The notes under the pieces were generated by a model. That model searched no databases. It was not told the origin of the DNA and worked only from the letters and a program-made list of their open reading frames with translations. DNA of 42,281 nt from a virus. Numbering within the stretch: the stretch's first letter is position 1; the number at the start of each line of letters is the position of its first letter. The stretch lies in IMG/VR virus record IMGVR_UViG_3300030122_000023, one strand, 5' to 3'. The translations under genes and the position numbers were made by a program. This document shows positions 1 to 41,188 of this stretch, piece by piece.

Positions 1-127
1 ATAAATTCTGTTAAAAATCCCAAATCTGTCATGTTTAAATCCTCTCTTTCTGCTTCAAATGAAGCTCTTCAATTTCGTGTTTCATCTTTGTGACCATTCC
101 ATTGCCGCCCAACGCATGATAGGCATT
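1..127. repeat. Direct terminal repeat identical to 42155..42281 (circularisation overlap; unique length 42,154 bp)
   Basis: Base-for-base identity between the first 127 nt (ataaattctgttaaaaatcc...) and the last 127 nt of the window. Confidence 0.95.
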
Positions 128-349
128 GTACATTTCCATAAAATTCTGGTAGGCATAGGATGGAATTTCTTTGAGAGCCATGTATTTATCATGGTACTCA
201 ATCAGTTGTACTCGAAGCAAAAGCATCGTTCCTCTGCTATTCGCATCTCTGTCTGACTTCTGGTTTTTCAAAAGCCACACTATGTATCCCATAAATGCTG
301 TCAGAACGATAGGCAAAGCAATCGTGTACGTTTCTTTTAACATCTCCAT
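35..349 (-). CDS. Small membrane-anchored protein of the lysis cassette, function unknown
   Basis: 104-aa ORF with an N-terminal hydrophobic helix (YTIALPIVLTAFMGYIVWLL). On the circular map its stop abuts the holin start (42186 = position 32). Confidence 0.6.
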   Translation of the reverse strand: MEMLKETYTIALPIVLTAFMGYIVWLLKNQKSDRDANSRGTMLLLRVQLIEYHDKYMALKEIPSYAYQNFMEMYNAYHALGGNGMVTKMKHEIEELHLKQKERI

Positions 350-427
350 TGGATCATCTTCCTTTCTTTTGTATAATTCAATTATAATATTTCAGAATAA
401 TTTTTTGTTCCATTTTACTTCGCATAA

Positions 428-443
428 CCAGAGTTTAACTAAC
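428..443. repeat. Inverted repeat IR-L (ccagagtttaactaac), partner at 1481..1496
   Basis: Perfect 16-bp reverse-complement match. It encodes Q-S-L-T-N in the same codon phase in both contexts. Confidence 0.9.
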
Positions 444-701
444 ATTCCTATATTCAGATGTGGTCGAATTAGAGTATCGTATGATAGTCCTCAATATTTA
501 AAAGCAAATGTTGTTTTTGATAAAGAAATGCCATCATATGATTATTCAGTTACTATTGGCATTGACTCAAATGTTATCGATTGCACAGCTATATACTATG
601 AAAACAGAAGCGTACATGGATTTGGAATTTCCATATATAAAGCTGACGCAAAATTCACAAGCGTTGACGGTGTAAATCTGTCTTGGATTGCTGCAATGTA
701 G
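444..701 (+). other. Start-less, promoter-less alternative tail-fibre C-terminal cassette (85 codons plus stop), H-type-lectin-like pattern
   Basis: Open frame IPIFRCGRIRVSYDSPQYLKANVVFDKEMPSYDYSV...HGFGISIYKADAKFTSVDGVNLSWIAAM directly follows IR-L. No RBS or ATG at its 5' end. It converges on the tail-fibre 3' end. Confidence 0.6.
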
Positions 702-781
702 TTTTTTAGCAACAGAAATTCTGCTTATATAGTATTTGCACGTATTTTCAGATTTTTGACCACCTGTAATAATAAGATTTT

Positions 782-1696
782 TTAATTAAGAACAATGAAA
801 CCTGCTCCGAGACTTCCACCACCGCTATCGTTGGTTTTAAAACCGCATTGTGTTCCTGCGTAAAAGTTCATTTGCACGCCGTCTAAGCTGGTACCGTTGT
901 CTCGATGTCCCATTTCACCGTTAGAAAAAAAGTCTATGTCACGTTTGTTATAGCCTTGCCAATATACTGTAGCAGTAAAATTTTTTGTAGGAACTATACC
1001 AGCACTATTTACTGTGAAAAAATTGGGATTTACACCGACCCATCCTGTTACCCACTGTCCATTGGAATAGCTGTCTATTGATCGCCATCCTGCTATACAA
1101 CTGCCACTAGGAACACCTGCTGATTGACCAGCAGCATAGCCAGTATTATAGCCATCCTCATATCTTTTAAAAGGGGATACTGTACCGGCACCTCCTGTTC
1201 CACTTGCAAAGTATTTATATAAAGTGCTATTATCTGCTGATATGGATCGTTGCTGTACGATACCCCAAACAGTACGGGCGTTACTATCTACATTTGTATC
1301 CGTAGACAGAACACCAGAAAACCAGTCTACATTTGATGCAACTACATCAAACTCAATCGAATACATAGGAGTTATTTGCCCCATCAAATAATTTTTATTT
1401 ATATAATCGCAGACAGTTTTTGCATCAGCCGCAAGGTTTGGCAGGACTAATCTAAGATACGTTTTCTTCGAATCATTTAAGTTAGTTAAACTCTGGGATA
1501 CATCCGCGAACCCCGCCTCAATTCTATCTTCCAGATCATTCATGTTTGCAGCATTAAAAGCATCACCCTCCTGCGAGATTGTGCCCTCATCCCTTGCAAC
1601 TGTCACAAGACTTGTGCTGCCATCTTCCATCGTAATCAGTCTGCGGTTAATATACTCTGCAATTCGATTTTTCCATGTTTTCTTTGTAAATCCCAT
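782..1696 (-). CDS. Tail fibre / receptor-binding protein (304 aa from M43 of the listed ORF)
   Basis: N-terminus MGFTKKTWKNRIAEYINRRL...AFNAANMNDLEDRIE is typical of phage tail-fibre N-termini. RBS GGAAGAGAGGA lies upstream of the ATG at 1696. It is the last gene of the tail module. Confidence 0.7.
   Translation of the reverse strand: MGFTKKTWKNRIAEYINRRLITMEDGSTSLVTVARDEGTISQEGDAFNAANMNDLEDRIEAGFADVSQSLTNLNDSKKTYLRLVLPNLAADAKTVCDYINKNYLMGQITPMYSIEFDVVASNVDWFSGVLSTDTNVDSNARTVWGIVQQRSISADNSTLYKYFASGTGGAGTVSPFKRYEDGYNTGYAAGQSAGVPSGSCIAGWRSIDSYSNGQWVTGWVGVNPNFFTVNSAGIVPTKNFTATVYWQGYNKRDIDFFSNGEMGHRDNGTSLDGVQMNFYAGTQCGFKTNDSGGGSLGAGFIVLN
1481..1496. repeat. Inverted repeat IR-R (gttagttaaactctgg) inside the tail-fibre gene at codons 68-72
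   Basis: Perfect reverse complement of 428..443. Confidence 0.9.
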
Positions 1697-1712
1697 AATA
1701 TGTCCTCTCTTC

Positions 1713-2189
1713 CTATAATAATAGTCCGGTATCATCTCCGGCATATACCTCTGATCCACAATAATAATTAAAGTTGTTAAGTAAAATGCCATACACATCA
1801 TCCAATATTTTCTCAATATCATTCATCTTCTGGTATGTATTGACTGGCATACTCGGTGTCTGCGGCGTGTCTCCATGAATCATGTACGCATTTCTGATAA
1901 CCTCTGTGTTATTTATGACTGATATTAAAAATGTCTCATTTGGATGTTCTGGAACGTCTGCAACCGTAAGATTAAGTTCCAGCACATCTGATAATAACTT
2001 TGTGTTATTCTGGATTCTCTGCATATCTGATCGATTCAGTGCGCCTTTCATCCCGGCAAGCCATTCTGTTTTTTCGTCTACATTGAAATTATCCAATCCT
2101 TTCTGTAACAACTCCAACATGCGATCCACATCACTCTGTGACCGGTCCGTCACTGTCTGCATCCACACCAGCATAAGCAACCACCTCAC
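1713..2189 (-). CDS. Tail-fibre-associated structural protein (start uncertain: GTG 2189, ATG 2162 or ATG 2120)
   Basis: 158-aa ORF between the baseplate and fibre genes. Contains repeated D..R(M/I)-type motifs (SDVDRMLELL, SDMQRIQNN) common in fibre-proximal proteins. Confidence 0.55.
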   Translation of the reverse strand: MRWLLMLVWMQTVTDRSQSDVDRMLELLQKGLDNFNVDEKTEWLAGMKGALNRSDMQRIQNNTKLLSDVLELNLTVADVPEHPNETFLISVINNTEVIRNAYMIHGDTPQTPSMPVNTYQKMNDIEKILDDVYGILLNNFNYYCGSEVYAGDDTGLLL

Positions 2190-2295
2190 TTTTCAGACGC
2201 TCATTTTCTTCTTTTAAAGCTTTGTTTTCCTTTGTGAGCTTTAGATTTTCTTTTCTAAGCTCGTCATAATAAGGATTAATTGGATTGTAATTCAT
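2131..2295 (-). CDS. Small coiled-coil protein (54 aa), not in the ORF track
   Basis: Translates to MNYNPINPYYDELRKENLKLTKENKALKEENERLKSEVVAYAGVDADSDGPVTE. Its start overlaps the upstream stop (TGATG). Confidence 0.45.
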   Translation of the reverse strand: MNYNPINPYYDELRKENLKLTKENKALKEENERLKSEVVAYAGVDADSDGPVTE

Positions 2296-4022
2296 CAGAT
2301 CAGCACATCTCCTCCCGTATATAATTCAACTCCGGCGAAGTAATTTTCCGTAACAACTACTGAATACCCCCTGCACGTTGCCGTTGCGATAAATCCACCG
2401 GTCAAATCAAGCGTCTGGCTCTCAATCAATGTTGTCGATGTCTTGCCACCGATGGAATTTATATTCGCCCAATTTCCTACCTGCTCTAAGTCAACCAGGT
2501 ACTTCATTCCCACCTTTTTTCTCAAGGCATGATAATCCAAAAGATAAGCGGCGATATCAGGTAATATATCAGCATTATAAATGGTGCATCCACTGTACTT
2601 CTTTATATTTTCTGTCTCTCCAGCTTCGATTTTATCCACACGTTTCTCATAAGAAAAAGTGGTATTTGCATATTTAATACCTGTGATCTGGCACTGTCCG
2701 GCATCCGGCATGTTAATGATGAGATAATTTGTTTTTACTTCTTTCAGCGTGCCGACACTTGCCGTGATGGACGATGGAAGATATGGACTTGAGAATGTGA
2801 TCTTGGTATCTCCGGCCGGCAATGTTTTCTTATAAATGTCTGAGTTTTTTTCTTCCAATGCATAGTTTTTCATCTCAATATTCACACCAGAGATATATTT
2901 TTCAAGAGATACTTTCGTATTTCCATTAAATTTGCGATCCGTCCCGACAGTGGATTTCACATATCTGTCTGGCTTATAAACCTTGATGGTATCGCTCCGG
3001 CTGTCATCCGCAACCGCACCACACGCAAAGCATACCTGTTGCAATGCCTTACGGCACGTCTGGATGGCTAAATAGCCACTTAAAAGTGTGTTACCTACTT
3101 CTTCATCAATTACATATTTTTTTATTCCTGCTGTTACAAATATCGCATTCAGTATCACTTCTGCACGGACATTGTTATATACCTGTCCGTCATAAAATGT
3201 ATACTTATCTAATAAACCAACTTCATCAACCAGCTTAAATTTTGCAATATTCTTTGAAAAAGAAAAGTCGTTGATGAAGAATGCTCCCATAGGAATCATG
3301 TTTCCGTTCTTAAACTCTGACAATGTGACTTCCTGCGTTTTCTGCACACTCTTCCACGCTCCATTTTCGTTTTCTGCATCAAAATCATTATTCATATCAA
3401 CAATTGAAATATCCGCTTCGTTGATAGACAATGTTGCAGAGGTCACATCAATGTCTTCCTGCACCTTGGCTGTCTGGATCATATCCTTATCCCACACGAT
3501 ATATTTTCCGTATAAAATGTACTGAAGCTTAATATATCTCTTTGGAAAGCTTGTTCTTACAAATTCAATCTCGATTTTTCCATAATTCTGCACCTGATTA
3601 TTGCAAACATAAATAAGGCTGTCCGGGTAAAATGTTTCTGTGATTAATTTTGTACCGGCGATTGTATACCATGTGATTTTCAACTCTGCTGGTGGCTCAT
3701 CTTCAAAATAAAGTGTGATCGCTGCGGACGTGTGCTGCTCTTGGAACGTGACTGTAATCTTAGGATCTTTTTCAAAAGTACAATCTTCCTTCGATAACGC
3801 ATCATTCCAAAATGCAATGTCTTTCGGATTTTCCGTCAATACGCTTTTACTTCCATCTAGCACAAATTGGTTCAGTTCAAAAGTCCCATAACTTTTCTGT
3901 TCCGTCTGGTCTGCAAACAACTCAACTGAACCTATGCCCTGGTTATCATCTGTCGTAACCGTGGCATCTGATAATGCGGTAACATCTATAAATTTCATTT
4001 CTGCCCTGCAATATGTTCTCAT
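2295..4022 (-). CDS. Tail tip / baseplate hub protein (Tal-like)
   Basis: 575-aa ORF two genes downstream of the tape measure. RBS AAGGGGG lies 5 nt upstream of the ATG. Confidence 0.5.
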   Translation of the reverse strand: MRTYCRAEMKFIDVTALSDATVTTDDNQGIGSVELFADQTEQKSYGTFELNQFVLDGSKSVLTENPKDIAFWNDALSKEDCTFEKDPKITVTFQEQHTSAAITLYFEDEPPAELKITWYTIAGTKLITETFYPDSLIYVCNNQVQNYGKIEIEFVRTSFPKRYIKLQYILYGKYIVWDKDMIQTAKVQEDIDVTSATLSINEADISIVDMNNDFDAENENGAWKSVQKTQEVTLSEFKNGNMIPMGAFFINDFSFSKNIAKFKLVDEVGLLDKYTFYDGQVYNNVRAEVILNAIFVTAGIKKYVIDEEVGNTLLSGYLAIQTCRKALQQVCFACGAVADDSRSDTIKVYKPDRYVKSTVGTDRKFNGNTKVSLEKYISGVNIEMKNYALEEKNSDIYKKTLPAGDTKITFSSPYLPSSITASVGTLKEVKTNYLIINMPDAGQCQITGIKYANTTFSYEKRVDKIEAGETENIKKYSGCTIYNADILPDIAAYLLDYHALRKKVGMKYLVDLEQVGNWANINSIGGKTSTTLIESQTLDLTGGFIATATCRGYSVVVTENYFAGVELYTGGDVLI

Positions 4023-4032
4023 AAATGCCCCC

Positions 4033-4428
4033 TTACGGTGTCTTAAATGGTTTTTTACTCGTCATTTTCCATGACAATCCTTTATATTTCGCTCCGTTGT
4101 CAAATACCTTTTCTACTTCATCTTTAATTGATGAAAAATACCCATAGAAATCAAACTGCTTGCTTGCATCCGGTAAAGATACATGATGGAATCTGTTTTC
4201 ACAATCTGTTATATGATCCATCAGTTTATCATAAAGTCCCGAATCGTCTATTGTGCCAATTGAAATTGTATAGTTCTTATAGATTCCTATACTCTCAATA
4301 TGAATATCTCCGTCCTCTGTTCTTTCTGCATACTTTTCCAAGAAATCCAAAGTCCTTTGAATAGAAACCATAGGGATATTATATGTAATTCCATCAATGA
4401 TAAGTCCTTGTGTATACTTATGTACCAT
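4033..4428 (-). CDS. Small tail protein immediately after the tape measure (distal-tail position)
   Basis: 131-aa ORF, called from synteny only. Confidence 0.4.
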   Translation of the reverse strand: MVHKYTQGLIIDGITYNIPMVSIQRTLDFLEKYAERTEDGDIHIESIGIYKNYTISIGTIDDSGLYDKLMDHITDCENRFHHVSLPDASKQFDFYGYFSSIKDEVEKVFDNGAKYKGLSWKMTSKKPFKTP

Positions 4429-4429
4429 C

Positions 4430-7018
4430 TTATCCCTCCGCTATCCCAAGTCTTATTTCTTCATCCTGTAAATACGGCAGATTAATTCTTGCGAACTCTT
4501 TACCATCCACCGCCAGTACTACTGTCTTTGCACCGCTGTAGTCCGGCATTTTGCTTGCAAGCTTCGATGCAAGGTCGTCCATCCAGCCGGTGTTATTTTC
4601 AAGCGGCAGGACAGCTTCTTTTCCGGCTTCTCCGATTTCCGCGAGTGTCATTCCGGTTGTTACGCCACCGTTGGCAAGACGAGGCAGATTTACAGTAGGA
4701 ATTGTCGGAATACTTGGATGCCATGATCCTCCACCCAAAAAATCAGGTAAATCAAATCCAATGCTGTTAAAGCCAGAAATCAATGAATTGAGGCCATTAA
4801 TAACATGGTTTACCATATTTTCAAACACCTGGATAACACTGTTCACAAAATCTTTTACCGATTTTTCTGCTTGGCGTAATGCTTTATCTGTGTCTTTCGT
4901 AAGTAATGCATGAATTGCGGCGAATACAAGTTTTACCCCTGCCAGCAAAAAATTGATCAGATCTAAAATAAAATCGACGCTGTCTTTTATATTCTGGCTC
5001 AGGTTTTCAATGATCGGCAAAATTACCGGAAGCACATTTTCAATAATCCATGCAATAATCGGCTGTAAAATATTTGTCCATAAATCGTTCAGTATGTCTA
5101 TTACGATTCCCATTATTTCGAAAATATTATCAAACACAGGCTTTAAATGATTTTCATAGGTATCCTCAAACATTAACGCCAGATTCTGTAAAATAGGCTG
5201 CACATAAGTGTTCCAAAATTCAAGAAATTTTTCTATTAATTCTGACATTCCATTTTTTACATTTTCGATAAACGGATGAATATGTTCATCGTACAATTCT
5301 GTGATTTTATCGGTCACATGCTGCACGCCGTCTGATATAGTCGTTGTCAAATCCGCAATCACACCAAGAACCCCATCCAACGCATCTTTTAAAGCATCCT
5401 GATTCTCTACAAAAGGTGTCACGATGCAATCGATAATATCTTTTCCAAATTTTGCTGCATTCTCCGTAACCATCATGAACGCATCCGAAAAAATCTGAAT
5501 CAGGTTTGCTGTGATCTGCTGTCCATTTTCATCCCCAAATACAGAAAATACATTTGCGAATGCATCTGCCCCCTGTGATGCCAACACTGAAATATCAGAT
5601 GCTATATCAAACATGTCGATAATATAATTTTTTATATTTTCAGAATTACTTTCAAGATAAATAGATATCCCACCAAGAAGATTTTCTGCTATGGTAGCAC
5701 CTATGCTTACTACAGATGCCGAAATGCTTCCAAGTGACCTTGAAAAAGTCATAGCAAAATTGTCAACAGATGCAGAAACTTCACTATCTGAAAAAATATT
5801 TAAAAATGAATTCTTTATGCTTTCTATACTGGATTTAATATTATCAAATTGTAAAGAAACATCTAAATTGCTCCAGGTTTCATCCCATCCATTTTTTATA
5901 GAAACTTTTAATTTTTTTAAATAATCTATAAATGGCTGGATTTTATCTGATAATTCTTTTCCAGTAGGAACTTCTTCATATAAATCAGATCCGCCACTAC
6001 CAGATCCACCGCTACCGCTTCCAGAATCATTTTTCTGCAATACATTCAAGTCATCAAAAGCCGCCAATGCTCCAGCCGCTTTTTTGGCAGAACCGGCTGT
6101 TTTATCAAGAGATGCCGCATAGTCTACCTGCTGCTTCTTTGCCTTTGTCCAAGTGCTTTTTCCGCTTATAGCCGCAATAAATCCATTCATAGCATTAATG
6201 GCATTTGTAAGCCATGTGCATAAGGTTACGATTGCTGGTGTCAATGCAGATATGATAGGCGCTGTCAGTGCTCCAATAGAATTTTTTAATGTAGCCGAAG
6301 CACTTGCCATTTCAGACATTTTTCCATTAAATTCAGAAGAATACTTCGCCATGTTCTGTATACCTTCTGTAAATGCCTTGGATATGGTCTGAGATACTTT
6401 CATAACCGCACCGAATATTGCAAAACTAACTACTGTCTGCTTTATTCGTTTCGCCATGTCAGATATTAAGCCAGAGGATTTTTTTGCTGATTTTCCTACT
6501 TTTTCAATGTCTTTCGCACCAGCACCAATAGTTTTCTCATTAGCAGCTGTTTCTCTCATCTTCTGATTAAGGACTTCCTGTTTGCTCTGTACATCAAGAA
6601 GCTTTTCAGATACTTTGCTATATTCCTCTGTAGTTGTAGGATCTATAAAAGCAGTTCCGGAAGATTCCATTGCGGCAAGCTCGCCTTTTGCATATTTAAT
6701 TGAGTTTGTTAATTCCTCAACGTCGTATTGCATTCTTTTGAAGGTTGTGCTTTTACTGCTTCCACCTGTTTCTAAGAATTTATCCATTCTGGCAAGAAGT
6801 TTATCAAGAGAAGCAGTATCTTTTTCTATCTGCATCTGCACAGCCTTATATTCCTCTGTTGGAATCTTTTGACTTGCCAGTTCTTTCAGTGTCTTGGAAA
6901 ACTTATCAGCTTCTCTTGCAAGCTTCTGAAACTGTGATTCCATCTGCATGAGCTTACTTGATGCTTCTCCATTTTCAATCAACGTTTTTATTCTGATTTC
7001 GCCATCATATTCAGCCAT
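4430..7018 (-). CDS. Tail tape measure protein
   Basis: 862 aa with coiled-coil N-terminal and central helical regions, hydrophobic segments and a GSGSGGSGSGGS linker. Sits after the chaperone pair. Confidence 0.85.
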   Translation of the reverse strand: MAEYDGEIRIKTLIENGEASSKLMQMESQFQKLAREADKFSKTLKELASQKIPTEEYKAVQMQIEKDTASLDKLLARMDKFLETGGSSKSTTFKRMQYDVEELTNSIKYAKGELAAMESSGTAFIDPTTTEEYSKVSEKLLDVQSKQEVLNQKMRETAANEKTIGAGAKDIEKVGKSAKKSSGLISDMAKRIKQTVVSFAIFGAVMKVSQTISKAFTEGIQNMAKYSSEFNGKMSEMASASATLKNSIGALTAPIISALTPAIVTLCTWLTNAINAMNGFIAAISGKSTWTKAKKQQVDYAASLDKTAGSAKKAAGALAAFDDLNVLQKNDSGSGSGGSGSGGSDLYEEVPTGKELSDKIQPFIDYLKKLKVSIKNGWDETWSNLDVSLQFDNIKSSIESIKNSFLNIFSDSEVSASVDNFAMTFSRSLGSISASVVSIGATIAENLLGGISIYLESNSENIKNYIIDMFDIASDISVLASQGADAFANVFSVFGDENGQQITANLIQIFSDAFMMVTENAAKFGKDIIDCIVTPFVENQDALKDALDGVLGVIADLTTTISDGVQHVTDKITELYDEHIHPFIENVKNGMSELIEKFLEFWNTYVQPILQNLALMFEDTYENHLKPVFDNIFEIMGIVIDILNDLWTNILQPIIAWIIENVLPVILPIIENLSQNIKDSVDFILDLINFLLAGVKLVFAAIHALLTKDTDKALRQAEKSVKDFVNSVIQVFENMVNHVINGLNSLISGFNSIGFDLPDFLGGGSWHPSIPTIPTVNLPRLANGGVTTGMTLAEIGEAGKEAVLPLENNTGWMDDLASKLASKMPDYSGAKTVVLAVDGKEFARINLPYLQDEEIRLGIAEG

Positions 7019-17681: not shown

Positions 17682-19154
17682 TTACTCCTCTCCAAATAGA
17701 CCACCGCTGTTCCTTTCCGCATCTTCCTGCGCTCTCTCTGCAAACATGGCATCTACTTCATCATCATTAAATCCCTCATATTCTTTAAGGTATTTACGCT
17801 TAGAATAAATACCTTGAATCATTAAATTATATGCTCTTGATCTGTCCTGTTCGAAGCTTGCAAGCAAATCTTTAAAATAAAATATATCTTCGTCCGGTAC
17901 ATCATCATCCAGTGCATCCACATAGCCGGCAGAGATTCCGTAAAGGTCGCAGAATACATTGATTGCATAAATAAGATTTTTTAATGCTGTCTTTATGCTT
18001 TTTCTGATATCGTTAATCGTTTCTACCGTTTCATTATCGTCACTTTCAACCTGCGTTGCTGTCAATCTTCCTGACTTTCTGTCAAGGATAAACTGCCCTT
18101 GTGAAAATCCGCATTTTGTCGAAATCATAGATAGCACGCTGTTAATGTCTGTGATTCTGTCAGAAGTAAGCATGGTCGGGACGTGTTCATCAATCGTGCT
18201 TTTTGAATCCAGCCCCAATTTCAAGCCTTTAACGAACCGAGGAAGTTCTACTGTTGAGGAACGGATGCCGCCTTTTCCCTGTTTTGTCATGGCGTTCTCA
18301 TCAATGAAAGTAATGTGCTGCGAATCCTCAACTTCATTCCCTTTTTTACTCCATGCTATATCGAGATCTCTAAGCTCCATAAGTGCATTTGAGAAAATCG
18401 AGACACCTTCTGGAGATGAGTAGTCGATCGTATTGTTAAATGGTGTTTTTAAATAGGCGAACAGTGGCTTTTCTACGTTCATAATATGAACGACTTCATC
18501 AATTGAAGACCACTCCGAAACGTCATGCAGTTCTATCTTTTTACCAAGTGAGTTACTGCTGTTTGACTTGAACGCTCTGTTCTGGATCTCGTACACGTTA
18601 ATCTCTTCGCCCTCTTTATTTTTTGAGGTCGTAAAATGATGGTATTCGAGCCGGTAATAGTACACCTTATCTTTTATAAGTCGATTAATAAAGATACATC
18701 CTCTAATATCTCCGTTGTTTGTTTTTTCTGTGATTGCAAAATCCCACGGCATAATATAATTGATCATGTTGTCTGGGTTCATTGAACCGTTTGGTTTTAA
18801 AATTATACCACCAACTCCGAGCATATCTTCGACTTTGTCTCTGATAGAAGTGTCAACCATTGCCCTGATGCACTTATTAATAAAATCAGCTCTCTCTGAA
18901 CCTGTTACGCTCACTGATAAATCCATACATGCTTTCTTTGCTGTGTACTGGCAGAGGAATTTTGCGAAATTTATTGTCCTGATGTCTTTTTTTTCCGGAT
19001 CAACCCAGAAAGGACTCCCCTTAATGATGTCGTTCCATCTCTGCTGTGAGTTCTCGATCTCCGGAGAAGTGATAAACTCGACATTAAATTCTTTCTCTGC
19101 ATCTGTTCTAAAAAACTTCATGATCGTCTCCCTTATTTTTTCAAAAAAATTCAT
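17682..19154 (-). CDS. Portal protein (SPP1 Gp6-like)
   Basis: 490 aa immediately after the terminase, with the family-typical N-terminus and an acidic C-terminus. Confidence 0.85.
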   Translation of the reverse strand: MNFFEKIRETIMKFFRTDAEKEFNVEFITSPEIENSQQRWNDIIKGSPFWVDPEKKDIRTINFAKFLCQYTAKKACMDLSVSVTGSERADFINKCIRAMVDTSIRDKVEDMLGVGGIILKPNGSMNPDNMINYIMPWDFAITEKTNNGDIRGCIFINRLIKDKVYYYRLEYHHFTTSKNKEGEEINVYEIQNRAFKSNSSNSLGKKIELHDVSEWSSIDEVVHIMNVEKPLFAYLKTPFNNTIDYSSPEGVSIFSNALMELRDLDIAWSKKGNEVEDSQHITFIDENAMTKQGKGGIRSSTVELPRFVKGLKLGLDSKSTIDEHVPTMLTSDRITDINSVLSMISTKCGFSQGQFILDRKSGRLTATQVESDDNETVETINDIRKSIKTALKNLIYAINVFCDLYGISAGYVDALDDDVPDEDIFYFKDLLASFEQDRSRAYNLMIQGIYSKRKYLKEYEGFNDDEVDAMFAERAQEDAERNSGGLFGEE

Positions 19155-19157
19155 TTT

Positions 19158-20855
19158 TTAATCCTCATAATCGTCACTGTCTTCTTCCTCATCATCATAA
19201 AGACCGTCATTCCTTCGGCTGGTCATGATGATCCTGTTCAGTGCATAAATGTTAGCCATGATCGTATCCTCTTCTAAGGTCGGGTAAGCATCCGAGAATG
19301 AACCATCTGGAAGCTGCTCATGCTCTGCCTTTGTAAACTCTTTTTCTGTATTCGGGCAACGTTCTGGATCAATGACAATCTTATTGCATCGCTGAAGCCA
19401 CTCCCAGCAGTAATCCCTTCCTTTTCCGCTTCCCCATCTTTTCTTTGCCCCGATCGCATTGAATCCCCATTCCTGCATCTCTGCTATTCCGTCCGGTCTG
19501 GCAGAATCGCATATAATCTCGACATTCATAAATTTCTTTATCTTCCTGGCAAAGGTAGAGTTTTTACATTTTTTAGAATACACTTCGCCAAAAATATAAA
19601 GAGTGTCCGTCTCGTAATCGTAATAGTTCTGGCTGAACACCTGTGGGTGTGTGTATCCGAAGTCCAAACCGTGGTTTACTGTGTCAAATGTCATTAACTC
19701 CTCATCCGATATTTTTCGGATTTCTAAATTGTCGAAGATGCCGCCGCCTGTTCCAGTGACTTCTCCGAGATAATTATTTTTATAATATAATGGTTTATGA
19801 ATCCTGAACCACTCCGCACGCTCGAAGAATCGCTTTCCAAGCCATTTCACAGGTACATTATAATAATAACTGTGGCAGATCCGTGTCTGTGGCTTATTTT
19901 TACACTCTTCGGTGTACTCGTTCATAAAGTTATTTTTTGACTTCGGAGGATTGAAAATTTTTATGTCAAGTGCTGGTGTATCTGCTCGCAAAAATGTATC
20001 CTCTATGTTATCCATCTGCTCCACACCTGCCATCTCGTCGCACTCTTCATGGATCAGCATCTTAACATATCCGAATGGCACGTTGAAAGATTTTAAGCTG
20101 ATAGGCTTATCAGCTCCCACGAACATTACCATCTGCCCGGTCGGCTTATACACCGCACACATCGGAGACTGCTTAAAGTCCCAGTTATCCAGATCATTAC
20201 ACCGGATCACCACCTTCATAAACTGATTATAAACAGATCCTCTCAAGTCAATCTTATATCGTCTTGTGTATACGATATGCGCCTGAGGATCCTGTCTGAT
20301 CGTCTCATATGCAAGATTCCCCCAAAAATTGGACTTAATAGAACCACGCCCACCCTTCGATATGATCTCGTGTATGTCTATCTCTCCGGCAAAAGCTTCA
20401 TGCACTGTCCGGTATATCTCCACAAAGTCGGATGTAATGTCCGTGATCGGGATCGTCCAGAGTGCCGATTTCTCTCGCTTTTCCTTTTCCTCTCGCTCGA
20501 TCTTCTGCTTTTCTGCTATGGTCAGTGCCTTTTCCAAACCGTCCATTGCCTTAAGCTGATCGGAGAAATCTGGAGAGAATCCGAGACCGTCCACGACTTC
20601 GCCCTTTGCGATTTTACTTCTTCGCTCTTGGATGTCAGCAAGGCTCATAATGTCCCGGTGCTGTTCTTTCTCGATGCGATCCATTTTTTCCGCTATATAT
20701 TCTGTAATGACAGTTTTTGACAGCAGTTTTTGTGCGCTTCGATTCGCTCCATTCTCGCTATAGCCTGCGCTTATGTATGCCTGTGTGGCATTTCCGCCAT
20801 TCTTTATATACTCGTCTGCAAATGCTTTCTGTTTCGGTGTGAGTTCTCCCTTCAT
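19158..20855 (-). CDS. Terminase: small-subunit (Terminase_2-like HTH) domain fused to a PBSX-type large subunit
   Basis: Residues 1-130 (LTPKQKAFADEYIKNGGNATQAYISAGYS...) are TerS-like. Walker A KGGRGSIKS sits at about residue 167, followed by a ~400-aa TerL body. There is no stop between the two parts. Confidence 0.8.
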   Translation of the reverse strand: MKGELTPKQKAFADEYIKNGGNATQAYISAGYSENGANRSAQKLLSKTVITEYIAEKMDRIEKEQHRDIMSLADIQERRSKIAKGEVVDGLGFSPDFSDQLKAMDGLEKALTIAEKQKIEREEKEKREKSALWTIPITDITSDFVEIYRTVHEAFAGEIDIHEIISKGGRGSIKSNFWGNLAYETIRQDPQAHIVYTRRYKIDLRGSVYNQFMKVVIRCNDLDNWDFKQSPMCAVYKPTGQMVMFVGADKPISLKSFNVPFGYVKMLIHEECDEMAGVEQMDNIEDTFLRADTPALDIKIFNPPKSKNNFMNEYTEECKNKPQTRICHSYYYNVPVKWLGKRFFERAEWFRIHKPLYYKNNYLGEVTGTGGGIFDNLEIRKISDEELMTFDTVNHGLDFGYTHPQVFSQNYYDYETDTLYIFGEVYSKKCKNSTFARKIKKFMNVEIICDSARPDGIAEMQEWGFNAIGAKKRWGSGKGRDYCWEWLQRCNKIVIDPERCPNTEKEFTKAEHEQLPDGSFSDAYPTLEEDTIMANIYALNRIIMTSRRNDGLYDDEEEDSDDYED

Positions 20856-25043: not shown

Positions 25044-26756
25044 CTACGCAAACCGGAGCTGTCCGGTCTGCTCTGCTTCCATCCTCATGTTCGGTGTTCG
25101 TTCCGCAATACACAGTTCTGGCAGATTGGCTCTAACCAATGCTGCTGGTATCGGTGGACACACTGCATTTCCGCATCTTCTGACCTGCTCACTTCTCGGA
25201 TATGTCTTTCCTGTGTAGTCATGGTCGATTATGTAATCGTCTGGGAATCCCTGGCATCCGTAAAGTTCTTTCGGCTCAAGCATCCTCAATCCTATGTCCA
25301 CAATCTGGTAATCTACACCCTCAATAGTCACAAGTCCAAATCTATCTCTGGATGTAACTGTATCAAGAGGTTCCTCAATGTCCTGTCCGGTTCCCTGCCC
25401 ATAATATTTAATTAAAAATGCTCTTACTTCTCCGAAGTGACCATCCCCAGCGGTTATTGTTGGTATAGGATCACGTAAATCTCGCCCATCACAATGGTTA
25501 TTCATCTGGATAAGATTTGCCGTAACTACACTGTTATGATCCCACGCTGTTACTGTAGGTAGCGGATTTTCTAATGTATCGCCTGCGCCTTTATATCCAC
25601 CATCGTAGTACTTTTGCAGGAATGATGCGACCAGTCCATATCTGTTTGAGCTGTCCACTGTCATGATCGGATCTTCTATAGTCTGTCCTCTTACTCCATC
25701 TTTTGAGGTTTCTGAATGGTACTGGATCAACGTAGGACTTATCAGGCAATGCTCATTTTTACTCACAATGGTTGTAAGCGGCTCCCGGACATCTTTGCTC
25801 CGGTCTTTTGTAAAACCTGTCTGTCCGATCTGCACCATATATGGCTCTACAATCCCATACCCATATTTTCCGGTTATAGTCGGCATCGGCTCTCGAATGT
25901 CGTTCGGTCTACGCTCACCACCATGATTGCACTGAATGATAAAAGGCTCTGGATTATCCAGAATGAATTTTTTAAATCCCCTTGCTATCCTATCCATCGT
26001 CTTTTGTGCCAGCGGTCTCACTGCCCGGATTCCGTATTTTTCTTTTATTTCTTCTGAAGTATCGAAGATACTCGGACATGGCAAGGAAAAATCTAACTGT
26101 GTGTATGCTCCAACATATGGTTTGAGCAATCCTTTCTTGACTTCTTCACTGTCTGCCGGTGCGTGTGTCGGCTCTGGCCAGACAATCGTCTTGCCGTCAC
26201 ACCTGGCGATCATGAAAAATCTCTTTCGCATGGTAGGTGCTCCGTAGTCAGCGGCAATCAGCTCCCGAAATTCCACTTTGTATCCCATATCAGTAAGCTG
26301 CTGCACAAATTTTTCAAAAGTCTTACCCTGCTTGCTCTTAATTGGATGATGCCGCCTGTTTAACGGTCCCCATGTCTTAAATTCCTCTACATTCTCAAGC
26401 ATGATAACCCTTGGTCTTACAAGCCCCGCCCATCTTAAGGCTACCCATGCAAGACCTCTGATATTTTTATCTTTTGGTTTTCCACCCTTTGCCTTGCTGA
26501 AATGCTTGCAATCTGGGGAAAACCAGGCAAGTCCAACCGGATGCCCATTGCAAGTCTTGACAGGATCAACCGCCCACACATTTTCGCAGTAATGCTCTGT
26601 ATTTGGGTGATTAGCTTTGTGCATCTTAATAGCTTCTGGATCATGATTGATTGCGATATCAACACTGTATCCGGTTGCCATTTCTATACCAGTGGAAGCG
26701 CCGCCCCCACCAGCAAAATTGTCAACTATCAATTCTCCATGTATCATTTTCTTCAA
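25044..26756 (-). CDS. DNA (cytosine-5)-methyltransferase with six tandem ~35-aa internal repeats
   Basis: Motif I DNFAGGGGAS, motif IV SPDCKHFS, motif VI ENV, C-terminal QGFPDDY...GNAVCPP. Repeats span residues 272-478. Confidence 0.85.
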   Translation of the reverse strand: MKKMIHGELIVDNFAGGGGASTGIEMATGYSVDIAINHDPEAIKMHKANHPNTEHYCENVWAVDPVKTCNGHPVGLAWFSPDCKHFSKAKGGKPKDKNIRGLAWVALRWAGLVRPRVIMLENVEEFKTWGPLNRRHHPIKSKQGKTFEKFVQQLTDMGYKVEFRELIAADYGAPTMRKRFFMIARCDGKTIVWPEPTHAPADSEEVKKGLLKPYVGAYTQLDFSLPCPSIFDTSEEIKEKYGIRAVRPLAQKTMDRIARGFKKFILDNPEPFIIQCNHGGERRPNDIREPMPTITGKYGYGIVEPYMVQIGQTGFTKDRSKDVREPLTTIVSKNEHCLISPTLIQYHSETSKDGVRGQTIEDPIMTVDSSNRYGLVASFLQKYYDGGYKGAGDTLENPLPTVTAWDHNSVVTANLIQMNNHCDGRDLRDPIPTITAGDGHFGEVRAFLIKYYGQGTGQDIEEPLDTVTSRDRFGLVTIEGVDYQIVDIGLRMLEPKELYGCQGFPDDYIIDHDYTGKTYPRSEQVRRCGNAVCPPIPAALVRANLPELCIAERTPNMRMEAEQTGQLRFA

Positions 26757-39111: not shown

Positions 39112-39705
39112 ATGAACGAATCAAAAGATACTAAAGTATGTAAACACTGTCAATCGGAGATTCCTAAGAAAGCAAAGATATGTCCAGTATGCAAAAAGAA
39201 ACAAGGTTTACCGAAATGGGCGATTGTTTTAATTGTGATCCTGGTTCTTGCAGCTATCGGTTCTGCTTCTGGTGGAAATTCCGACAATTCAGAAACTACT
39301 ACCACTTCACAATCATCAAGCACAAACGAAACTCAAAATTCGACACCAGAGGTAAAGGAAGTTGAGACCGAATCAGAGCCAGAAATTGAATATACTGCGG
39401 TTGATGTAAGCACCATGATGGATGATTTGAAAAACAATTCAATGAAAGCAGAAGATACTTACAATGACAAATACTTAGAAATTACTGGTCGATTAGATGT
39501 TATTGACAGCAACGGTAAGTATATCGGGGTATTCTCTCAGACAGACAAATTTGCAATTGTTGGTGTCCAATGCTATATAAAAGATGATGATGTAAAAGCA
39601 AAGGTAATGGAAATGTCCAAAGACGATACTATAACGCTCAAAGTTCATATTAAAAACGTTGGGGAAGTTATGGGGTACTCCGCAGATATTATAGAAATAG
39701 AATAG
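39112..39705 (+). CDS. Zinc-ribbon / single-TM protein with an extracytoplasmic OB-fold-like domain (lysogeny-module cargo)
   Basis: CKHCQSEIPKKAKICPVCKKK, TM WAIVLIVILVLAAIG, a Ser/Thr-rich linker, then KAEDTYNDKYLEITGRL. Confidence 0.65.
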   Translation: MNESKDTKVCKHCQSEIPKKAKICPVCKKKQGLPKWAIVLIVILVLAAIGSASGGNSDNSETTTTSQSSSTNETQNSTPEVKEVETESEPEIEYTAVDVSTMMDDLKNNSMKAEDTYNDKYLEITGRLDVIDSNGKYIGVFSQTDKFAIVGVQCYIKDDDVKAKVMEMSKDDTITLKVHIKNVGEVMGYSADIIEIE

Positions 39706-39753: not shown

Positions 39754-41094
39754 ATGAACATAGCAATTTATCCAAGGAAATCAAAAAAAGATGATAATTC
39801 AGAATCAATGGAACAGCAAATAGACGATTGTAAAAAGTACATTGATAAAACTTACCATAATGCAAATATAATCGTTTATTCTGGCGATTATGCGATCACA
39901 GGGCATAGCACGGCAAAAAGAAAGGACTTTCAGCGCATGATGGATGATGTCAGAGCAGGAAGAATCAATGCAGTTGTCATTATGAGATACGATCGTATAG
40001 CAAGAAATATGAGAGATTTCTGTAACCTCTATCACGACATGGAAAGCGCAGGATGCAACTTAATATCAGTGAGTCAGCAGATCGATACTTCCACGCCATA
40101 CGGAAAGAACTTCATGTACCAGATGGCAAACATGGCAGAATTAGAATGGGCGGTTATATCTGAGCGATACAAAGACACCGCAGCTTATAAAATCCGTGAA
40201 GGGAAAGCTTACACTGGCAGAGTGCCCATAGGATTTAAAATAGAGAAAATAGATGGTGTAAAGAAAGTCGTACATGATAATGAGGAACAGACAAGGGCTA
40301 TCTTTGATTATTTATTAGCAACCAAAAGCAAGCGCGGCACTGTTTTATGGGTACGTGAAAATTTGATTCCAGACTTCACACGTCACAAATTAGACACAAT
40401 GATAAATTCAGATTTATATATTGGTAAAGTAAGGGAAAATGAAAATTTCTGCGAACCTTATTTTACCAAAGAGCAAATGGAAGAAATAAGAAGTGTCAAT
40501 CAGATAAAATACGCTCCGTCCGGTCATATATATCTATTCAGTGGGTTATTCCGCTGTCCTATATGCGGCAGGAAAATGGCAAGTTTTTATAGCATAGACA
40601 GGAAGACCAAAAAGCACAGGCAATATCAAAGATGCTGGTTTGGTGGAAATGAGAAATTGCACAAAACAAAATTAGTGTCAGAAGCAAAAACAGAAAAATA
40701 TCTTCTTGAAAATCTTGATGCAGCATTAAAAAATCTTGAATTTGATGTAAAAAAAGAAGCAGGTAAACCAAAGCGCAATTTGAATAAGAAACTTAATGAT
40801 GCAATAGCGGAGCGTGACAGACTGAATTACCTTTTTGAAAAAGGAAGAATTGATATTCCAGAATACGAAAAGAAATACAGTGTCTTATCAGAAAAAATAA
40901 ACTCCATAAATGAGGAGTTGTCAAACAACAAAGTTGTAAGGATTGAGGAATTTAAGAAGCAGATACCGGAAGACTGGAAAGTCCTTTACGAACAACTAGA
41001 TCCAAAAGGAAAACAAGAGTTTTGGCATAGAATAATAAAAGAAATTTATTTGAATGAAGCCTTTGAAATTACTGGCTTTATATTTTATATCTAG
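39754..41094 (+). CDS. int: Large serine recombinase (integrase)
   Basis: N-terminal resolvase-type catalytic domain (AIYPRKS...), recombinase domain, zinc ribbon CPICGRK and coiled-coil C-terminus; 446 aa. Confidence 0.85.
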   Translation: MNIAIYPRKSKKDDNSESMEQQIDDCKKYIDKTYHNANIIVYSGDYAITGHSTAKRKDFQRMMDDVRAGRINAVVIMRYDRIARNMRDFCNLYHDMESAGCNLISVSQQIDTSTPYGKNFMYQMANMAELEWAVISERYKDTAAYKIREGKAYTGRVPIGFKIEKIDGVKKVVHDNEEQTRAIFDYLLATKSKRGTVLWVRENLIPDFTRHKLDTMINSDLYIGKVRENENFCEPYFTKEQMEEIRSVNQIKYAPSGHIYLFSGLFRCPICGRKMASFYSIDRKTKKHRQYQRCWFGGNEKLHKTKLVSEAKTEKYLLENLDAALKNLEFDVKKEAGKPKRNLNKKLNDAIAERDRLNYLFEKGRIDIPEYEKKYSVLSEKINSINEELSNNKVVRIEEFKKQIPEDWKVLYEQLDPKGKQEFWHRIIKEIYLNEAFEITGFIFYI

Positions 41095-41095
41095 G

Positions 41096-41146
41096 ACTTG
41101 TACTAAGCAACTATTTCCTAGCGGTTAACATTAATTAGTACAAGTC
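41096..41146. other. Candidate attP (51-bp dyad next to the integrase)
   Basis: gacttgtactaa-27 nt-ttagtacaagtc. No following T-tract, so a poor terminator. Confidence 0.4.
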
Positions 41147-41153
41147 TATTAAA

Positions 41154-41188
41154 AATGGCGATTAGAAATTCTAACCGCCATTTATTTT
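41154..41188. terminator. Bidirectional terminator between the convergent integrase and endolysin genes
   Basis: aatggcg a ttagaa a ttctaa c cgccatt flanked by A and T tracts. Confidence 0.7.

Follow-up and report, generated by a model that had tools for sequence, protein, structure and literature searches.

An orphan two-cassette tail-fibre tip module in gut temperate phages, a probable substrate for inversion in trans by Xer-like recombinases

The tips of tail fibres decide which bacteria a phage infects, and known switches between alternative tips include the Gin, Cin, Pin and Min systems, in which small serine invertases encoded beside the segment act at 26–34-bp sites (gix/cix) with a 2-bp crossover and a Fis-dependent enhancer. 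In the shufflon of R64/IncI, a plasmid pilus system, the recombinase Rci is encoded in cis and acts at 19-bp sfx sites to exchange PilV tips; we know of no orphan modules of that shufflon in other replicons. Among phages of gut bacteria, the Rin shufflons of Bifidobacterium prophages combine a constant N-terminus of the receptor-binding protein (RBP) with alternative C-terminal cassettes, 11-bp rix repeats and an armless Xer-like recombinase (Mavrich et al. 2018, PMC6109161). The bifidophages 689b-1 and Bb423phi2 differ by a ~500-bp inversion at an 8-bp repeat that swaps the 3' end of a gene with no flanking recombinase, for which an invertase acting in trans was proposed (PMC6109161). In addition, an active multi-cassette shufflon over the distal end of a tail-fibre gene, with a flanking recombinase and 10-bp directional motifs, has been described for a BV01-like Phocaeicola phage (2026 preprint, PMC13596623), and programmed tail-fibre inversions have been catalogued by Milman et al. 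(PMC9881135). In this study, we analysed a tail-fibre locus in virus DNA of 42,281 nt (IMG/VR record IMGVR_UViG_3300030122_000023), the whole of which is referred to as the window and supplies the coordinates used below.

Our analyses suggest that positions 428–1496 of the window are probably a two-cassette, site-specifically invertible tail-fibre tip module that is flipped or exchanged in trans by a family of Xer-like recombinases. A 16-mer, CCAGAGTTTAACTAAC, at 428–443 on the plus strand is the perfect reverse complement of 1481–1496, with 1037 nt between the arms, and the inverted repeat stops at 16 nt without further extension. The window holds only these two copies, also when two mismatches are allowed in the 16-mer or in its 13-nt core (expected number for the 16-mer, 0.02), and when the window was simulated 300 times with a second-order Markov model, 6 of the simulations (~2%) contained a perfect non-overlapping inverted 16-mer with its copies no more than 2 kb apart. 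Both copies encode QSLTN in frame. The fibre open reading frame (ORF; 782–1696, minus strand), located after the tail genes, encodes 304 aa starting MGFTKK and has QSLTN as residues 68–72, while the plus-strand frame from 429 reads QSLTN and then 85 open codons (IPIFRCG...WIAAM) up to a stop at 699–701. In-silico inversion of 444–1480 yields a 157-aa protein. The original prediction had described this perfect repeat with QSLTN in the same phase, a second cassette of 85 codons with neither ribosome-binding site (RBS) nor start codon that ends 80 bp from the fibre stop, and a 157-aa fusion upon inversion, all of which we found as described; the in-silico product is exact, and natural proteins of 157 aa and inverted contigs exist. 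The site junctions read TTCGCATAA-site-ATTCCTAT and GGATGTATC-site-TTAAATGA in the window orientation, and TTCGCATAA-site-TTAAATGA and GGATGTATC-site-ATTCCTAT in the flipped one. A terminator-like hairpin was looked for in the spacer between the two cassettes (702–781) and none was detected. The constant N-terminal part is 92–100% identical among proteins bearing many different tips.

In the window, the constant part of the fibre (residues 1–67) ends in a crossover site encoding QSLTN, tip A is expressed after that site, and tip B lies convergent and silent behind the inverted copy. In the mechanism that we propose, recombination between the two sites would flip 444–1480 and join tip B to the constant part, producing the 157-aa fibre. 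This would be carried out in trans by the Xer-like recombinase family in cells that hold both elements; the same family, again acting in trans, may also have originally brought in the module, or swapped it as an entire pair of cassettes. We regard the module as an orphan substrate because the window has no tyrosine recombinase, none being detected by Pfam searches of 39 ORFs and the tip B cassette or by tblastn. The trans-acting enzyme is most probably the Xer-like recombinase of a shufflon prophage described below, because that enzyme is physically tied to exactly the same site and module.

Natural isomers of the module exist in both orientations. A search with the predicted fusion retrieved proteins P0001–P0006, each of 157 aa, at 82–93% identity and 100% coverage, and in protein clusters the fusion type has 10 members and the native 304-aa fibre 73. 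Protein P0001 is encoded on contig L014 which, together with contigs L205–L209 (six independent samples), belongs to the window's phage type but carries the segment in inverted orientation, with the repeats as its exact limits; their flanks are 95.7–98.9% identical to the window and the breakpoints lie inside the repeats. In L014, the stretches matching window positions -6..442 (98.0%) and 1481..6696 (96.7%) share one orientation, and that matching 426..1496 (91.6%) has the opposite one. Tip A is the silent cassette in these flipped relatives and in L015. The site is found at offset 200 of the fibre gene in 47/47 close relatives and, in 22 of the 47, a second, inverted core adjoins the conserved flank on the holin side, so that the two sites bracket an expressed and a silent tip, the flank itself (ttatgcgaagtaaaatgg) being constant in all relatives. 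At least 14 different tip pairs and at least 26 tip families occur in the window's phage family, with 4/26 of the latter found in both the expressed and the silent position, and tip B follows QSLTN as an expressed fibre C-terminus on at least five unrelated N-terminal parts (P0002, P0007, P0010, P0013 and L003). None of the three refuting outcomes named by the original prediction was observed: assemblies do contain inverted-orientation junctions, relatives have kept the 16-mer and its reading frame, and tip B, represented by 13 nucleotide alleles, is intact in 51/51 copies. In a separate group of proteins (P0243, P0244 and P0247), the tip B stop is read through (...WIAAMQFFSNRNSAY...), as if the gene caller had translated TAG as Gln or a mutation had removed the stop; P0244 and P0247 also have short upstream ORFs of other origin fused to QSLTN and tip B.

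A clean flip of this module was found outside the window's lineage, in another phage, a myophage by its sheath, Baseplate_J and PF03406 fibre. Two independent records of this myophage (L214 and L211) share flanks with identities of 99.990% (10,473 nt) and 100% (1,700 nt), whereas their 1,070-nt module, although 100% identical in sequence, is inverted. Since this flip is clean and the 10 kb to each side of the fibre gene contain no recombinase in L214–L216, the module inverts in vivo without an adjacent enzyme. The same clean flip separates L116 from L211, except that L116 has also lost 16 nt from its silent tip A. This deletion (GTTTTCAGGTGTTCTG; L116 ~1790, L211 10630–10645) lies between CTG repeats and shifts the frame, an example of how silent cassettes can decay and lock the switch.

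Near-identical modules are also shared among unrelated phages. The window's module is 99.0% identical to a shufflon-prophage copy (L110), that of L014 is 99.7% identical to a myophage copy (L011) and 99.6% identical to a shufflon copy (L100), and those of L115 and L005 are 100% identical. In all of these pairs the sequences outside both sites are unrelated and homology ends exactly at the sites. Exchange of modules between window-type phages and the myophage appears, as their genomes indicate, to extend beyond the fibre tips. A prophage in GCA_977054315.1 (L120 8001–11100, compared with L214 11654–13059) combines window-type tail genes with the myophage lysis cassette (91% identity), and it is integrated where the myophage also resides in its host (MBOAT-GDSL-Crp-Fer4-LDH), the host flanks of the two being 98.35% identical.

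The loci found via the silent tip include a prophage of about 30% guanine-cytosine (GC) content whose fibre constant part ends in ...QLNQSLTN; after it comes a segment array in which the 13-nt core, CCAGAGTTTAACT, stands between the segments in either orientation. Mapped against one reference, the constant ends A and H of this shufflon enclose segments B–G, the order and orientation of which vary among assemblies (e.g., A+B+C+D+E+F+G+H+; A+D+C+G-F-E+; A+D-C+..E+G-F-H+; E-B+C-D-G+H+), with every junction at the core. Segment D corresponds to the tip B/tip A module of the window, and in L003 tip B is fused in frame to the constant part of the shufflon phage. Other segments hold genes other than fibre tips: in L012, segment E (5055–6414) carries a 251-aa ORF and a 148-aa membrane-protein-like ORF, and segment C (2759–3984) holds the recombinase itself. 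Since these invertible segments carry them, shuffling also reorients the segment E and recombinase genes.

Conservation of the site among relatives spans 13–15 nt and is asymmetric. Across 120 distinct contexts, CCAGAGTTTA is invariant, AACT seldom varies and the four QSLT codons have zero synonymous change; the core is equally conserved where its outer side is non-coding. The absence of synonymous change and the retention of the core beside a non-coding side imply that the constraint acts on the DNA, and the 13-nt core is, judging from these comparisons, the recombination site. Its CCAGAG is the probable crossover region, with the crossover placed in or at the edge of these six nucleotides because single-tip relatives without a silent cassette keep only CTCTGG beside the same outer flank. 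The constant-side site of the shufflon reads AGTTAAA-CCAGAG-TTTAACT, i.e., two inverted 7-nt arms with 6 nt between them; at other sites the arm on the cassette side is the only one retained.

The recombinase in segment C is a tyrosine recombinase of 347 aa with Pfam domains PF13495 and PF00589, and it is Xer-like by NCBIfam, at scores below the equivalog cut-offs. Xer-like recombinases are present in the relatives L003, L005, L010, L012, L013, L100, L106 and L111, and homologues with 46–54% identity adjoin fibre or BppU/baseplate genes in other ~40-kb phages. Many of the contigs with this family are just 1–3 kb long, which could stem from assemblies breaking at a heterogeneous locus. No cultured phage was close to the recombinase (all <40% identity) or to a 575-aa tail protein, for which the uncultured MT835516 was the one exception. 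On the 5.3-kb contig L115 (3555–5272), a related siphophage fibre (MAFSLKTW... type) and the tip A/tip B module occur together with the start of an Xer-like recombinase gene; this contig was not used as evidence for an enzyme in cis, as it is a possible assembly chimera via the shared 1-kb module.

The original prediction was also right that a small Hin/Gin-type invertase is lacking. No small (~190 aa) serine invertase lies by the segment, and the only serine recombinase of the window is a 446-aa integrase, ~1.6 kb away on the circular map. A 197-aa ORF adjoining the integrase (39112–39705) was considered as such an invertase and rejected, being a Sie-like zinc-ribbon/OB-fold protein that resembles superinfection-exclusion proteins. 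The prophage boundary region is at 41095–41186, between the integrase stop (41094) and the endolysin gene (ending 41187), and attP maps to ~41120, where homology to integrated copies ends and where there is no copy of the core. In those integrated copies (L205 8733–9700 and L209 8727–9700), the end of homology is followed by a 159-aa SpoVAD fragment and SpoVAC/SpoVAEB, and the integrase seems to insert the phage into or beside the spoVA sporulation operon of a spore-former. At 96–99% identity the integrase is present in one-tip relatives without a second site (L017, L022, L024, L031, L033, L036, L043 and L049), and its presence does not correlate with that of an invertible substrate, as it is found both with and without the second site.

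The spoVA and cotJ genes that flank the prophages point to a spore-forming Firmicute as the probable host. Shared hosts for these phages are plausible because a window-type prophage and the myophage are found at one host locus and host-like flanks beside the prophages have 38–50% GC; the difference in GC between the shufflon prophage (~30%) and the window (39%) was rejected as an argument against a shared host given the GC of those flanks. Tip B was absent from GTDB representative genomes, and a concatenated two-protein query from the host flank matched just a highly conserved GGGtGRT-type protein of many phyla. For the tips themselves, searches of Pfam, PHROGs, NCBIfam and PDB sequences gave nothing usable on fold or function. 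The 'H-type-lectin-like' pattern that the original prediction saw in tip B found no support, as Pfam, the H_lectin domain profile included, was empty for both tips even at E<=10. Residues ~35–70 of tip B gave a weak phmmer match in PDB (E 7e-4, no Pfam support) to the cell-wall-binding (CROP) repeats of TcdA (C. difficile toxin A), and an AlphaFold (AF2) model from an 18-sequence alignment of the fusion was unusable, with a predicted local distance difference test (pLDDT) score of 36.

Table 1. Coordinates of the module, its parts and neighbouring genes in the window.
Feature	Position	Strand	Description
Left (outer) crossover site	428..443	+	CCAGAGTTTAACTAAC; conserved core 428-440; CCAGAG, probable strand-exchange region; TTTAACT(NA), cassette-linked arm
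Silent tip B cassette	444..701	+	85 codons (IPIFRCGRIRV...NLSWIAAM) and stop 699-701; no start codon or RBS of its own
Spacer between convergent cassettes	702..781	.	80 bp, AT-rich (26% GC), from tip B end to fibre stop (782-784)
Tip A, currently expressed	782..1480	-	Fibre residues 73-304 (LNDSKK...GFIVLN) and stop 782-784
Right (inner) crossover site	1481..1496	-	Inside fibre gene; encodes Q68-N72
Constant N-terminal fibre part	1497..1696	-	Residues 1-67; ATG 1696-1694; RBS-like GGAAGAGAGGA upstream
Whole invertible/exchangeable segment	444..1480	.	Named module D in shufflon relatives
Holin-like gene (phrog_4105)	35..349	-	Conserved outer flank; context, outside the switch
Large serine recombinase (integrase), 446 aa	39754..41094	+	Sole recombinase in window; probably not the invertase

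Elsewhere in the window, a perfect 18-nt inverted repeat, TTTGCTTGCAAGCTTCGA, has copies at 4550–4567 and 17851–17868, 13.3 kb apart, in a tape-measure-sized gene and a portal-sized gene; by our own rough estimate, fewer than one such pair would be expected by chance at unrestricted distance. A single 565-aa ORF (19158–20855) joins small-terminase (Terminase_2) and large-terminase (Terminase_3) domains, and a 570-aa protein (25044–26756) has a C-5 cytosine methyltransferase domain.

Who supplies the recombinase, and whether the module still inverts, can be read in more than one way. The enzyme acting on a genuine inversion substrate might be a chromosomal recombinase of the host that works on many loci, as Mpi does in Bacteroides and RecV in C. 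difficile, instead of the prophage Xer-like recombinase. Such an enzyme would suit the finding that three or more phage types contain orphan modules and lack a recombinase in the vicinity (within 10 kb in L214–L216, and in the whole of the window), as well as the integration of a window-type prophage and of the myophage into one host locus, with its 98.35% identical flanks; moreover, a trans-supplied invertase was proposed for the recombinase-less bifidophage locus (Mavrich et al., PMC6109161). We nevertheless consider a host enzyme unlikely, since the only enzyme physically associated with the exact core is the Xer-like recombinase inside the shufflon, and its family consistently adjoins fibre genes. 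The original prediction had named either a host recombinase or the large serine integrase, and the latter (39754–41094) is a very improbable invertase of the module. Although it is the sole recombinase in the window and only ~1.6 kb from the module on the circular map, the same enzyme (96–99%) is kept by single-tip relatives without the second site, there is no third copy of the site near attP (~41120), and no such gene occurs within 5–10 kb of the module in the other phage types carrying it. In addition, the substrates of large serine integrases are attP and attB, two dissimilar sites of about 40–50 bp each, and not a pair of identical 16-bp sites.

Alternatively, the module may be a frozen relic, acquired once from a shufflon phage and no longer inverting, with the silent cassette a mere passenger. 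The absence of a recombinase in cis is compatible with this, as are the tracking of orientation with module allele in the window's lineage, the loss of the second site's arm in some relatives that keep CTCTGG only, a degenerate 6-codon remnant in L028 and the frameshift deletion in the silent tip of L116. However, the two sites of the window agree at all positions (16/16), and tip B is uninterrupted and identical to copies that other fibres express. A clean flip of this module is also all that distinguishes myophage genomes in which the 10 kb on each side of the fibre gene contain no recombinase, and each orientation is found repeatedly, in several sublineages whose constant ends differ. All of this makes a relic quite improbable. 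An explanation by chance, or by isomers that are assembly artefacts, could draw on the inverted 16-mers within 2 kb in ~2% of simulated windows and on the ability of metagenome assemblers to make chimeras across a shared 1-kb module, of which L115 is a possible case. Against it stand the same core in 120 contexts and flipped junctions with window-type sequence on both sides in six independent assemblies; each junction must presumably be spanned by reads, as the 16-bp repeat is shorter than the usual assembler k-mers. The conservation of the core, the sharing of modules, the isomers and the clean flip refute this explanation for practical purposes.

Several observations weigh against our preferred reading of a module flipped in trans by the Xer-like recombinase family. 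Opposite-orientation pairs in the window's lineage all differ by ~7–8% in the module (~92% identity, compared with 95.7–98.9% for the flanks), and no clean flip was found in that lineage by a junction-pattern scan, by inspection of cluster members or in contigs L217 and L218, orientation changing only with module divergence. The isomers of the window's lineage could reflect cassette replacement or old flips rather than frequent switching, and flipping may still go on within the window phage's own lineage. That the shufflon prophage and the window phage reside together in a single cell is at most suggested by the modules they have in common and by the host-like flanks with 38–50% GC. Furthermore, the sole contig joining a related siphophage fibre to a recombinase (L115) may be a chimera or, alternatively, belong to a ~40-kb phage with an enzyme in cis, and the 'receptor-binding' role of the tips, and with it their presumed effect on host range, is suggested by position and analogy.

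Possibly, the 13–16-nt site is a docking site common to siphophages, the myophage and the shufflon prophage, unrelated temperate phages within a single host group of gut Clostridia, which through it would draw on a communal, recombinase-mobilised pool of tips. The Xer-like recombinase would be encoded by some of these phages only, and the modules of the rest, the window phage included, would be orphans flipped or swapped in trans during co-residence. We advance this wider reading tentatively and give it not quite even weight; if true, determinants of host range would pass between phage families by a natural form of recombinase-mediated cassette exchange. The data point to a common family of human-gut temperate phages that keeps a spare tip behind a recombination site, and to a large pool of such tips (at least 26 families) in which identical modules, ending at the 13-nt site, move between unrelated phages. 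If an enzyme in trans flips or exchanges the modules, the host range of a phage would depend on its co-resident prophages, which matters for virome dynamics, and trans flipping could also explain the 1–3-kb recombinase contigs. In practical terms, the locus offers a small natural pair of site and recombinase with which receptor-binding domains could be exchanged when phages of Gram-positive gut bacteria are engineered.

The Rin shufflons are among the described systems closest to the one analysed here. Both have a gene with a constant N-terminal RBP part and C-terminal cassettes, each placed after a short asymmetric repeat (a 13-nt core in our case), in phages of Gram-positive gut hosts, and in both an Xer-like tyrosine recombinase is part of the locus, here in the shufflon relatives. 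The window itself has the constant part with alternative tips, the inverted repeat at the cassette starts and natural alternative arrangements (between assemblies), and it is in the shufflon relatives, not in the window, that a tyrosine recombinase is found in or beside the array. The site sequence, the tips and the phages all differ from those of Rin, and the window, unlike Rin, has only two cassettes and no recombinase, with cassettes and sites shared at 99–100% among unrelated phages. The inversion of 689b-1 and Bb423phi2 concerns one genome pair and a gene of unknown function, with no cognate recombinase or site-sharing shufflon, whereas a cognate site, a candidate enzyme and many isomers are identified here. 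As in the Mu G/Gin, P1 C/Cin, e14 Pin and p15B Min systems, the last with several cassettes, C-termini on a constant fibre N-terminus are chosen by inversion, and the original prediction's appeal to the architecture of Mu G and P1 C holds for this functional logic. It does not extend to the parts: the window has no serine invertase, the site is of 13–16 nt and asymmetric, and the enzyme associated with it in relatives is a tyrosine recombinase. Because of this type of site and the Xer-like enzyme found with it in relatives, we place the module with the tyrosine-recombinase shufflons.

Like the shufflon of R64/IncI, the system described here involves multi-segment inversion by a tyrosine recombinase, sites with one conserved arm (as in sfx) and the switching of an adhesin's C-terminal tip, but the former is a plasmid pilus system with 19-bp sites and Rci in cis. 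The BV01-like shufflon likewise belongs to a gut temperate phage and has distal-end tail-fibre cassettes with directional short motifs; it differs in its Bacteroidota host, its motif (TGGGAGAACT) and its recombinase in cis, and sharing across phages is unreported there. In Cre/Flp engineering, a segment between two inverted sites can flip or be swapped, in either orientation, for a similarly flanked segment. The pattern among these phages resembles such cassette exchange, a laboratory technique whose natural equivalent we only infer here. Phage tail-fibre inversion and tyrosine-recombinase shufflons are already known. What is new is this specific site and recombinase family in gut Clostridia-type phages without a close cultured relative, and a well-documented orphan two-cassette form, with modules that are 99–100% identical among siphophages, a myophage and shufflon prophages.

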